A stretch of DNA of 64,000 nt from Candidatus Norongarragalinales archaeon (GTDB taxonomy: Archaea > Micrarchaeota > Micrarchaeia > Norongarragalinales > Norongarragalinaceae): contig JAWABJ010000001.1 in NCBI GenBank assembly GCA_038884755.1, positions 153,792 to 217,791 of the forward strand, given 5' to 3'. Shown here piece by piece: positions 6,065-9,472 of this stretch. Under the pieces are notes generated by a model. The model had not been told where the DNA came from. It saw only the letters and a program-made list of their open reading frames with translations, and made no database searches. The position numbers were made by a program, and so were the translations under genes. Within the stretch, counting starts at the first letter, position 1, and each line of letters opens with the position of its first letter.

Positions 6065-9000
6065 ATGAAGGTCGTAAAAGCAATTGGTTTTTCGATATAC
6101 TCGCCTGAGAACGTGCGTAAGATGAGCGCCGCGAAAATCACCGTTCCAGACACTTACGACGAGGACGGCTACCCCATCAGCGGGGGCCTGGCAGACCAGC
6201 GCTTGGGCGTTGTAGACCCCGGCTTGAAGTGCCGCACGTGCGGAGGAAGGATGAAAGACTGTCCCGGGCACTCGGGGCACATCGAGCTCGTGAGGCCGGT
6301 GATTCACGTCGGTTTCGCAAAGCTCATTTACAATTTGCTGAAAGCCACTTGCAGGAAATGCGGAAGGCTCATGCACTACGCTTCGCGCGTCGAGGAAGCC
6401 AAAAAATCGCTGGAATGCCCGCATTGTGGCGAGAAGCAGAGGAAAGTCAAGTTCGTAAAGCCCAGCGCTTTTTACGAGGAAGACCGCAAGCTCTTTCCCA
6501 ACGAAATCAGAGAGCGTTTGGAGCACATTCCTGACGATGACTTGCGCACGTTGGGCGTTGCAATTCGCCCCGAGTGGGCAGTGCTCACCGTTTTGATAGT
6601 CCCTCCAGTCACAGTCCGCCCTTCTATCACTCTCGAAACTGGGGAAAGGAGCGAGGACGATTTGACGCACAAGCTCGTGGACATTCTTCGAATCAACCAG
6701 CGTTTGGAAGAGAATATCGACGCGGGCGCGCCGCAGCTTATAATAGAAGACTTGTGGGAATTGCTGCAATACCACGTTACCACTTACTACGACAACGAGA
6801 CTTCCGGAATTCCTCCTGCGCGACACCGTTCGGGGCGCCAGCTTAAGACTTTGTTCCAGCGTTTGAAGGGCAAGGAAGGGCGCTTTCGCTACAATCTCAG
6901 CGGAAAGAGGGTAAACTTTTCGGCCCGCACCGTGATTTCTCCCGACCCAACGCTGGGAATAAACGAGTTGGGCGTGCCGATGGAAATTGCGAGAGAGCTT
7001 ACCGTTCCGGTCAGCGTGACGCAATGGAATTTGGAGAACGTGAAGGAAATGATTCGCGCTCGCGCCGAGGCCATAAATTACGTAATCCGCCCAGACGGGA
7101 AGAGGAAGAAAATCACTACCGCCAACATAGAAGAGGTTTTGACCGAGCTTACGCCGGGCTATACTGTGGAAAGGCAGCTGTTCGACGGCGACGTAGTGAT
7201 ATTCAACAGGCAGCCTTCCCTCCACCGCGTTTCGATGTTGTGCCATGAAGTCAAGGTTTTGCCTGGAAAAACGTTCCGCTTTAACGTCGCAAATTGCAAC
7301 CCGTACAATGCCGACTTCGACGGAGATGAAATGAACATTCACGTTCCGCAGACTGAAGAGGCGCAGGCTGAAGCCGAACTGCTGATGAAAGTTCAGGATA
7401 ACATCCTCTCGCCGCGCAACGGCTCTCCGCTTATCGCGCCCGACTTGGACCAAATCACGGGATTGTATTTGCTTTCGCTCGACGATTTCGTTGTTACTAA
7501 AAAGGAAGCTTGCAATTTGCTTAACGCAGCTGGAGTGGATGGCGCGTTGGAAAAAAGCTTGGTGAGCGGCAAGGAAATTTATTCCATGATATTGCCTGAA
7601 AAGTTCGACTTGGAGCTTGAAGGCAAGGGTGGAAACAAAGTCCGCATAAAGAACGGGAAGCTCACCGAAGGGTTTTTGGACGCGCACGCCAACCGCACCG
7701 TCGTGAGACGAATTTTCGACGAGTTTGGGAGTGAGGAAGCTCGAAAGTACGTTGACAAGGCGACCAAGCTTTCGGTCGAGCTTGCATACCGCTACGGGTT
7801 TTCGCTGAGCTTGAAGGACTATTACTTGCCCGAATCGGCGATTGCGGAAATAACCAAGCTTTACGACGAGGGCAGGCAGCGGCTCGTAGAGCTCGTGAGG
7901 AAATACAAGACCAGGAAGCTTGAACGGCTTCCGGGAAAGACGCTCAAGGAAACTCTCGAAGAGCAGGTAATGAACATCGTCGAACTCATACGCTTCCACT
8001 GCTGGACTATAGTCAAGGAAAAAATTTCTAAAACCGCCGTAGAAATTAACGGCAGGCAGTTCGAGCACAATTCTTCCCTGCTCATGGCACAGGCCGGGGT
8101 GAAGAACAAGCCCATCAACGTCGTGCAGATGACCGCGCTGGTGGGACAGCAGGCCGTCCGCGGAAAGAGGCCCGCCGCAGGATTCAAGAAAAGGCTTTTG
8201 CCGCACTTCAGGCGTGGCGATTTGGGCGACGCGGCGCGCGGTTTCGTCAAAAACAATTACAAGAGCGGGTTGAATGCCGTCGAGTATTTCTTCCACGCTG
8301 CGGGAGGAAGGGACAGCGTGGTCGACAAGGGAGTTAACCCGGCAAAGACTGGTTACATGCAACGCCGTCTCATTAATGCATTACAGGATTTGATCGTAAA
8401 GGAAGACGCGAGCGTCAGGGACAGCGAAGGAAAAATAGTACAGTTCAAGTACGGCGGGGACGGAATCGACCCTTCGACTGGAAAGCAAATCGCTTACGGC
8501 GAGCCTGTCGGGGTTATCGAGGCGCAGAGCATCGGCGAGCCCGGAACTCAAATGACTTTGCGCACTTTCCACTATGCCGGCGTAGCTTCGCTGGCGCAAT
8601 TCGGCTTCACGCGTTTGGTAGAGTTGGTGGACGCCCGCAAATCGCCGAAAAAGCCGGTCATGGAAATTTGCCTGAAGAAAAGCATTGCAGGCGATTTCGA
8701 GAAAGTCAAGACGATAGCTGCCAGCATCGAAAGCGTGGTTTTGGAGGACGTTGCGGAAACCAAGGAGAATTTCGACCGGAAGGCGATTACCATAACCCTC
8801 AACCCATTGCTGCTCAAGGACAAGGGAATCCGCGAAAAGGCGATTTTGGACGAGATTGGTAAAATAACCCCCAACTTCAAGCACGAAGGACACGAGATTG
8901 TGATTAAAACGAAGGAAGAGTCCCTCAAGGCCGTACGTAAGTTGACTCTACGCTTCAAGGAATTGCATTTGGGCGGAGTCAAGGGAATAAGGAAAGCGAT

Positions 9001-9472
9001 TATCGTGGAAAAGAAGACCGAAGGCGGGAAGGAGTACACCATCGCAACCGAAGGCTCTAATCTCGAAGACATTCTCAAGCTGGAAGAAATAGACTCTCAC
9101 CGCACGAGCACGAACGACATCATGGAAATAGGGCGCGTTCTCGGGATAGAAGCGGCGCGAAACGCGATTATCCAGGAAATAAAGAAAGTGTTGGACACGC
9201 AGGACTTGACTGTCGACGAAAGGCACATAATGCTCATCGCCGACGCCATGACTTTCTTGGGCGGAGTGAAGAGCGTTGGAAGGCACGGGCTTGCAGGGCA
9301 AAAGAAAAGCGTGCTTGCGCGCGCGGCGTTCGAAGAGACCGCAAAGCATTTGCTGAACGCATGCATTTACGGAGAGGAAGACCCGCTGAAAGGCATAGCG
9401 GAAAACATCATCATCGGGCAAACAATCCCTGCTGGAACCGGCACAGTGCAACTGGAAATGAAGCTCGAGTGA
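6065..9472 (+). CDS. rpoA: DNA-directed RNA polymerase subunit A, unsplit (A' and A'' regions in one reading frame)
   Basis: About 1135 aa from [22 protein letters not shown]. N-terminal Zn motifs CRTCGG...CPGHSGH and catalytic [10 protein letters not shown] are present. Reading continues without a stop through the A'/A'' junction (...[46 protein letters not shown]...) to the A''-type C-terminus [20 protein letters not shown]. Confidence 0.9.
   Translation: [1135 protein letters not shown]

Follow-up and report, generated by a model that had tools for sequence, protein, structure and literature searches.

The question raised by the window analysed here, a stretch of 64,000 nucleotides (nt) from a Candidatus Norongarragalinales archaeon (assembly GCA_038884755.1, contig JAWABJ010000001.1), is how the largest subunit of archaeal RNA polymerase (RNAP), made in canonical archaea as two proteins, A' (Rpo1N) and A'' (Rpo1C), came to be encoded there by one gene. 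A fused rpoA (Rpo1) gene lies at 6065..9472 (+) and specifies 1135 amino acids (aa) plus a stop codon, with the A' and A'' parts in one chain. We consider it probable that this is an intact single-gene rpoA for an ordinary enzyme without a module equivalent to the foot of eukaryotic Rpb1, and that it is a derived fusion of a kind that recurred among the DPANN archaea. In the list of open reading frames (ORFs) the frame is free of stops from 6038 to 9472 (+), and its first ATG is at 6065, with GGGTGG just 5' of it. Pfam places Rpb1 domains 1 to 5, in order and all within the one protein (E 1e-80 to 5e-21), and every motif quoted in the initial annotation, which had read an unsplit ORF of about 1135 codons here, is present; that part of it therefore stands. 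Among the NCBIfam equivalogs, TIGR02390 (A') scored 1100 bits against a cut-off of 1042 and covered residues 109-806, and TIGR02389 (A'') scored 390 bits, slightly under its cut-off of 420.65, and covered residues 768-1133. The latter score is under the cut-off because the A'' N-terminal domain is absent, and as a result these fused proteins go by "subunit A'" alone in public records. A sequence-identical public protein (P0001), encoded on a 714-kb NCBI contig, is annotated as Ca. Norongarragalinales archaeon, with the lineage Archaea; Nanobdellati (DPANN); Microcaldota (formerly Micrarchaeota); Micrarchaeia; order Norongarragalinales. In its ordered domains, its catalytic elements and its location in an rpoH-rpoB-rpoA cluster the protein agrees with the definition of archaeal Rpo1. 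Judged by its sequence, rpoA of the window is an intact functional gene for the largest (catalytic) RNAP subunit of a Micrarchaeota archaeon, and we infer that the protein would be made as a single chain of 1135 aa and about 127 kDa.

As the source is a metagenome-assembled genome, a missed frameshift or stop, or a chimeric assembly, might have joined two separate genes into one frame. The same continuous frame was found in more than 100 independent full-length homologues from NCBI, JGI, ENA and Logan assemblies (1110-1230 aa, 93% down to about 48% identity), all of them single proteins with all five Rpb1 domains. Three GTDB species representatives of the window clade (L007, L008 and L009) likewise carry rpoA as one ORF with a split rpoB upstream. 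The junction loop is conserved, and neither a stop codon nor a long homopolymer run occurs in the junction DNA at 8460-8500. On these sequence comparisons an assembly error as the source of the single frame appears effectively excluded, and we find this explanation scarcely credible. The initial annotation had also raised the question whether the fusion is lineage-wide, and held that a host lineage already known to carry unsplit rpoA would refute its reading. All 76 sequences of the window clade (76/76) are fused, so the data answer that question in the affirmative, though no paper was found that states so for Micrarchaeota. Fused rpoA is therefore not a one-off oddity: the whole clade and many related small archaea are alike.

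Alignment of the A' and A'' parts, which had been suggested at the outset as a way to locate the junction, puts the end of A' at about 803-806 and the start of A'' at 809-812. By phmmer against solved structures, the A'-homologous part comprises residues 1-803 (6065..8473, +) and aligns to residues 3-879 of 907 in 36ro_A (archaeal Rpo1N), 6-882 of 906 in 4qiw_A and 4-859 of 880 in Saccharolobus 2waq_A; with the solved archaeal RNAPs, A' homology stops at query residue 804-806. The A''-homologous part, residues 812-1135 (8498..9469, +), opens with the first trigger-loop helix. Query residues 809-811 match A'' residues 60-64 in every solved archaeal RNAP, and the alignment continues to A'' residues 384-391. 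The start of A'' at residue 768 given by NCBIfam was rejected as a forced extension, for it overlaps the A' alignment. Between the two parts stands the junction loop STGKQIAY, residues 804-811 (8474..8497, +), in the place where the A' tail and the A'' N-terminal domain (about 76-86 residues) would be. At this boundary the A' C-terminal tail is short of about 20-25 residues, and the first 60-64 or so of A'', which form an N-terminal helical domain, are absent.

This boundary accounts for over half of the total shortening of about 130-140 residues. With 1135 aa, against 880+392 in Saccharolobus, 906+391 in Thermococcus and 1273-1290 in full-length fused forms, RpoA of the window is indeed the trimmed enzyme, some 130 aa shorter, that the initial annotation had described. 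An alignment with fused RpoA of Bathyarchaeota, Helarchaeota and Baldrarchaeia (1270-1318 aa) was used to map the deletions. Relative to these full-length forms, 76-86 residues are missing after residue 803, 26 after 105, 14 after 525, 7 after 494, 5 after 542 and 4-5 after 138, together with a few at each end; the single insertion comprises 8 residues (658-665). Among window-clade members the junction loop (8-10 residues) is of fixed length, and G806, A810 and Y811 are kept in 33/47, 39/47 and 37/47 of them respectively; the consensus of these 47 members reads YGDDG(L/I)D(P) followed by 13 further residues. Because both its length and its residues are conserved, the loop is under constraint. 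A domain survey describes beta'-aD3 as an archaea-specific N-terminal addition of Rpo1C (PMC11515920), and the lost module matches beta'-aD3 in part. When the 64-kb window was searched by tblastn for a stand-alone copy of the lost junction module, only chance matches were obtained, all with E > 0.2.

The elements required of a catalytic subunit are intact, both in the sequence and in the predicted structure. The first zinc motif, 17 residues long (CRTCGG...CPGHSGH; residues 56-72, 6230..6280, +), was read from the translation; among 72 homologues C56, G68 and G71 are invariant, and C59, C66 and H69 are kept in at least 90%. The second zinc motif (C96, C99, C118 and C121; 6350..6427, +) has a shortened loop, 26 residues being gone after residue 105, and all four of its cysteines are invariant in the same 72 homologues. 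The catalytic Mg-binding motif of 10 residues (415-424; 7307..7336, +), also read from the translation, is invariant in the homologue alignments at all positions but F418. An AlphaFold2 model built from 72 aligned sequences had a mean predicted local distance difference test (pLDDT) score of 78.4 and a predicted template modelling score of 0.63. In this model the bridge helix, residues 738-773 (8276..8383, +), is a long helix, and a 13-residue motif within it aligns with the bridge helix of A'. A short strand follows at 791-793, and the first trigger-loop helix is modelled at 815-836, within a 25-residue motif at residues 812-836 of the RpoA frame. The pLDDT values across residues 791-820, which span the junction, are 89, 83 and 77, and a direct connection of A' to A'' by the short loop is structurally plausible in the model.

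The gene could be fused and the protein not, if the precursor were cleaved or if internal initiation gave A'-like and A''-like chains. The junction is a surface loop and as such could be accessible to a protease. The loop is, however, short and confidently predicted, and no intein or protease motif is present at the junction; window rpoA contains no intein, and those of homologues sit further inside the A'' part. For internal initiation, a start codon (Met, Val or Leu) accompanied by a ribosome-binding site was looked for near the junction and not found. A programmed frameshift or internal start was dropped on similar grounds, there being no candidate start codon and no slippery run at the junction. 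We therefore regard separate chains from the one gene as very improbable. Preferably, both halves would be made in cis at 1:1 stoichiometry, and the enzyme would work as an ordinary archaeal RNAP from which the foot-equivalent module is gone.

The comparison with the foot is drawn from yeast Rpb1. The A' part of the query reaches Rpb1 residue 876 in the alignment, and the trigger-loop region of Rpb1 picks up again near residue 1060. The eukaryotic foot and the lost module share an insertion point, which is flanked by the strand that follows the bridge helix and by the first trigger-loop helix; this site holds about 190 residues in eukaryotes, about 80 in canonical archaea and about 10 in RpoA of the window. 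In a yeast study (PMC5389574), the foot mutation rpo21-4 lies at Rpb1 residues 954-955, the foot is said to ensure that Rpb1 associates correctly with Rpb6 and Rpb4/7, and it is described as poorly conserved in archaea and bacteria. Judged from the sequences, the foot-equivalent module appears dispensable.

The states of rpoA and rpoB were surveyed in 80 loci from GTDB species representatives and in loci fetched separately (numbered with L), in which ORFs were called and matched to the four window proteins (RpoH, RpoB'', RpoB' and RpoA). The sample is biased to relatives of the query, and the state counts include the separately fetched loci and exclude those of TACK lineages, in which rpoA and rpoB are both fused and the junctions are long. 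A split rpoB accompanies a fused rpoA in no fewer than 10 loci (the window, L001, L003, L007, L008, L009, L012, L023, L040 and L055). Both genes are fused in 28 loci, mainly of Woese-, Pace- and Nanoarchaeota and also in Micrarchaeales L002 and Altiarchaeota L014; a further 8 loci with fused rpoA, Aenigmatarchaeota L082 among them, have rpoB off the contig. Both genes are split in 12-13 loci (Micrarchaeota, Burarchaeum, Nanohalarchaeota and one Woesearchaeota; 13 with L059, labelled Methanosarcinales), and a split rpoA with rpoB off the contig was found in 3 (L005, L013 and the Aenigmatarchaeota locus L066). By group, rpoA is fused in 35/35 clustered loci of Woese-/Pace-/Nanoarchaeota type, in 2/2 Altiarchaeota, in 1/2 Aenigmatarchaeota and in about half of the Micrarchaeota sampled. 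The pairing with a split rpoB is just one of three A/B combinations seen in DPANN and Altiarchaeota loci. The initial annotation had called the pairing of fused rpoA with split rpoB unusual. The pairing is real and clade-wide, but its rarity was overstated, since at least 10 loci share it and unsplit rpoA had already been published in several phyla.

Individual loci illustrate the range. Altiarchaeota L001 has B'' and B' and a fused rpoA of 1153 aa, followed by L30e-nusA-S12. In Micrarchaeales L002 both rpoB (1089 aa) and rpoA (1180 aa) are fused. Locus L003, labelled 'Micrarchaeota', has B'' and B' and a fused rpoA of 1238 aa with a full-length junction. In Micrarchaeia L004, also with B'' and B', rpoA is split into A' (849 aa) and A'' (332 aa), with TGA, one nucleotide and ATG between them (GAG TGA G ATG), and L006, labelled 'Micrarchaeota', has B'' and B' with A' of 856 aa and A'' of 373 aa.

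Junction length was taken by alignment as the number of residues from the YGxDG motif to the GExVG motif. It is 89-90 in Nitrosocaldus and Bathyarchaeota, 72-86 in canonical split forms and 82 in the fused L003, then 53 in split Aenigmatarchaeota and Nanohalarchaeota, 30-37 in split short-head Micrarchaeota, 23-25 in Altiarchaeota, Micrarchaeales, L012 and L082, 16-17 in Nanobdellota and 9-13 in the window clade, the shortest among the sampled loci. The lengths thus form a series of about 80, 53, 30-37, 23-25, 16-17 and about 10 residues. With the A'' part of L003 as the query, 120 stand-alone A'' proteins were obtained, of which 114 carry the AQSIGEP motif. The head that precedes this motif is bimodal in length, 17-23 residues in 36/114 (with Micrarchaeota, Anstonellaceae and Parvarchaeota labels) and 51-90 in 78/114; therefore, many split Micrarchaeota are also without the A'' N-terminal domain. 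In the short-head split Micrarchaeota A'' is 326-344 aa long.

Several other observations were made in these loci. In L005 (Anstonellaceae; 1-223) the A' C-terminal tail is unlike the canonical one, with 73 residues visible and ending in ...ERAMKSEGLM, and is followed by a short-head A'' of 333 aa. Inteins (PF14528 LAGLIDADG_3 and PF14890 Intein_splicing) occur within the A'' part of some Micrarchaeota RpoA or A'' (P0050, P0055, P0063, P0067, P0072, P0074 and P0110; L078 at 9448-11973 and L084 at 5734-9468), and the intein-bearing proteins reach 1608-1679 aa for RpoA and 842-1245 aa for A''. In the uncultured DPANN locus L030 (6899-10453), rpoA is broken near query residues 472/482 into ORFs of 514 and 670 aa and the A'/A'' junction is fused; the break comes either from a frameshift in the assembly or from a non-canonical split. 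Subunit B is labile in DPANN too: most of the sampled Woese-/Pace-/Nanoarchaeota loci, L002 and L014 have rpoB in one piece (about 1085-1126 aa), and the close relatives L001, L023, L040 and L055 have it split. Such an unsplit rpoB in many sampled DPANN fits poorly with the published statement that 'most DPANN' have a split B, in a sample biased as stated above. Locus L069 carries the label 'Candidatus Methylomirabilota bacterium' but has rpoB-rpoA of Bathyarchaeota type and is probably mis-binned.

Full-length RpoA (81 sequences, 1113 columns) was used for a neighbor-joining (NJ) tree with Kimura-corrected distances, 100 bootstrap replicates and the TACK clade as root; this tree supersedes an earlier midpoint-rooted tree of the A'' region. 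The window clade has 100% support and lies within a DPANN cluster at 92% (also 89%). Further members of the 92% cluster are L012 and L002, both fused, a clade of eight split Micrarchaeota (100%) and the sisters L006 (split) and L003 (fused) (100%). The split L070 and L059 stand as sister to a clade of 35 fused Nanobdellota (100%), the fused Aenigmatarchaeota L082 is sister to the split L066 and L063 (100%), and the fused Altiarchaeota cluster with split Euryarchaeota (94%). The TACK fused forms make up a distant, separate clade (96-100%). The interleaving of fused and split clades in this tree implies at least five state changes within DPANN and Altiarchaeota. In addition, the junctions of the fused clades differ in sequence and in length (9-13, 16-17 and 23-25), which fits separate events. 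The split or fused state of rpoA marks clades at roughly the order level and is unreliable deeper. Accordingly, the suggestion of the initial annotation that the pairing is phylogenetically informative holds at shallow depth and fails at deep nodes, given the number of state changes. It may be noted that the RpoA of L059 joins Woesearchaeota L070 with 100% bootstrap despite its Methanosarcinales label, so this locus too is probably mis-binned.

Among known systems, the canonical split Rpo1N/Rpo1C of Thermococcus kodakarensis (4QIW) and Saccharolobus shibatae (2WAQ) shares with the window the domains and their order, the zinc motifs, the catalytic loop, the bridge helix, the trigger loop and the order rpoH-rpoB-rpoA, at 45-65% local identity. 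In contrast, it consists of two ORFs with the break between the bridge-helix and trigger-loop regions, and the window has one ORF; compared with it, RpoA of the window also lacks about 20-25 A' C-terminal residues, the first 60-64 of A'' and 26 in the second zinc loop, with smaller deletions after 138, 494, 525 and 542. An unsplit, A-type RpoA is known from Thaumarchaeota, Korarchaeota and Bathyarchaeota, and the A'A'' type from Euryarchaeota and Crenarchaeota (Da Cunha et al. 2017, PMC5484517); unsplit rpoA in Thaumarchaeota is also given in PMC4084955. The A-type protein is, as in the window, a single polypeptide for A' and A'', but it has 1273-1285 aa, keeps a junction of about 86-90 residues, as measured in Bathyarchaeota, Nitrosocaldus and Thermoproteota, goes with an unsplit rpoB and belongs to a distant clade, against 1135 aa and 9-13 residues here. 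The NJ tree, an approximate method, does not group RpoA of the window by common descent with these TACK fused forms. Da Cunha et al. held splits and fusions of rpoA to be rare and reported a secondary fusion in Pacearchaeota (PMC5484517). That fusion, found here across Woese-, Pace- and Nanoarchaeota, resembles the window in being a DPANN gene of one ORF (about 1140-1200 aa) with a junction trimmed to 16-17 residues. It differs in forming its own 100% clade with split lineages (L070/L059 and L066/L063) nearer to it, in the sequence and length of its junction, and in occurring mostly with a fused rpoB (26 loci against 3 with split rpoB, L023, L040 and L055). The two fusions thus do not represent the same event. 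Closest to the window outside its own clade are the split short-head Micrarchaeota (L004, L011, L046 and Burarchaeum L067), in which the A'' N-terminal domain is gone, A'' has about 330-350 aa and rpoB is split; unlike the window they have two genes, with a stop, 1-4 nt and a start between them, and a junction of 30-37 rather than about 10 residues. With its DPANN lineage, its single ORF and split Micrarchaeota as neighbouring clades, the window gene is best filed as a secondary, DPANN-type fused rpoA. A full-text literature search found neither a published statement of fused rpoA in Micrarchaeota or Altiarchaeota nor a published description of the loss of the junction module.

The fused state may have arisen as follows. 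DPANN lineages would have trimmed the module and then joined adjacent genes (or, less likely, re-split them) several times independently. The most economical event would be one deletion with one end within the A' tail and the other within the A'' head; it would take away the stop codon, the spacer of 1-4 nt and the start codon, and so bring about fusion and trimming in one step. Fusion is favoured over fission in Micrarchaeota because the genes are adjacent, only a stop, 1-4 nt and a start lie between them, and the split Micrarchaeota keep an A' tail of canonical length. More broadly, the A'/A'' boundary may be a hot spot of remodelling in DPANN and Altiarchaeota, at which the module was trimmed or lost and the genes were fused or re-split at least five times, with rpoB flipping in parallel; for this wider proposal we see the chances as evenly balanced.

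Alternatively, the unsplit state might be ancestral, an A-type rpoA having been retained that lost about 80 residues from within; a later fission would then have given rise to the split Micrarchaeota. A-type rpoA does exist in several archaeal phyla (PMC5484517; L021, L074 and L083), and an identical junction could come from an internal deletion in a long fused form. Yet the window clade lies nested within DPANN, surrounded by lineages that are canonically split and have full-length junctions (L006, L070, L066 and L063), and the TACK fused forms are a distant clade with support of their own. A re-split would also need a new stop, spacer and start to arise at the canonical position, and the A' tail of 19-23 residues retained in split Micrarchaeota, which is of canonical length, fits a split ancestor. 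An ancestral unsplit gene thus seems unlikely, though it is a far stronger competitor than an assembly artefact or separate chains. Against the derived fusion that we prefer, several points must be counted. Among short-junction Micrarchaeota there are three fused groups and one split clade, so that locally the most parsimonious course is a fused ancestor followed by a single fission, with fewer events than 2-3 fusions. The nodes that order fused and split Micrarchaeota are weak (60% and 36%) and leave the direction, fusion or fission, two-way. Besides, NJ with a simple distance correction is prone to long-branch artefacts in the fast-evolving DPANN. Finally, the link between the lost module and the foot is drawn from the alignment position and the yeast literature (PMC5389574).

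If the boundary is indeed such a hot spot, the module would be dispensable for a working archaeal RNAP and the split or fused state of rpoA would be a homoplastic character. As a rare genomic change, that state has served to back a rooting of Archaea (PMC5484517), and its repeated change in DPANN weakens rpoA for this use. At the level of clades it offers markers, for example the conserved 15-residue junction of the window clade. With regard to annotation, these genomes will appear to lack A'' in pipelines and marker sets designed for two genes. As for mechanism, what corresponds in archaea to the Pol II foot would be removed here and the two halves tied by about 10 residues, which points to a minimal link from bridge helix to trigger loop.

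Upstream of rpoA lie the other genes of the cluster, in the order rpoH-B''-B'-A. The first is rpoH (Rpo5; 2439..2696, +), recognised by Pfam RNA_pol_Rpb5_C (E 9e-15), a position that is kept in related loci. It is followed by rpoB'' (Rpo2N; 2767..4233, +), the N-terminal half of subunit B, with 488 aa and Rpb2 domains 1-3 in Pfam, and by rpoB' (Rpo2C; 4243..6054, +), the C-terminal half, with 603 aa and Rpb2 domains 4-7. Both halves exceed their equivalog cut-offs (PRK09606, 635 bits against 355; TIGR03670, 912 bits against 811), which confirms the split rpoB of the initial annotation, and the break is at the canonical B''/B' site. The gap between B'' and B' is 9 nt; with the gap from B' to A included, the range is 9-10 nt.

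Unlike in L001, L003, L004 and L006, the genes L30e-nusA-S12-S7, the usual followers of rpoA, are not downstream of it in the window. In the region 3' of rpoA (9473-16026) lie genes for a CARDB-domain protein of 140 aa (9564-9986) and for a membrane protein resembling EMC3/TMCO1 (10388-10888), besides several ORFs without a Pfam match (10947-11606, 11611-13566, 13616-14170 and 14155-16026). Further large ORFs with no Pfam match at E <= 0.001 lie at 17552-19489 (-), 35793-37670 (+), 43184-45829 (-) and 60120-63671 (+) and encode 645, 625, 881 and 1183 aa respectively. The window also carries ordinary housekeeping genes, which is consistent with a normal chromosome region around the locus: a lipoyl-synthase-like radical SAM protein (760-1662, -), a Cbf5/TruB pseudouridine synthase (19950-20912, +), a family-B DNA polymerase (29130-31580, +), and the large (DP2; 49686-53120, -) and small (DP1; 53117-54640, -) subunits of PolD. 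Three tRNA genes were found in the window, Leu-GAG at 23957-24041, Pro-GGG at 25649-25722 and Arg-CCT at 56625-56701.

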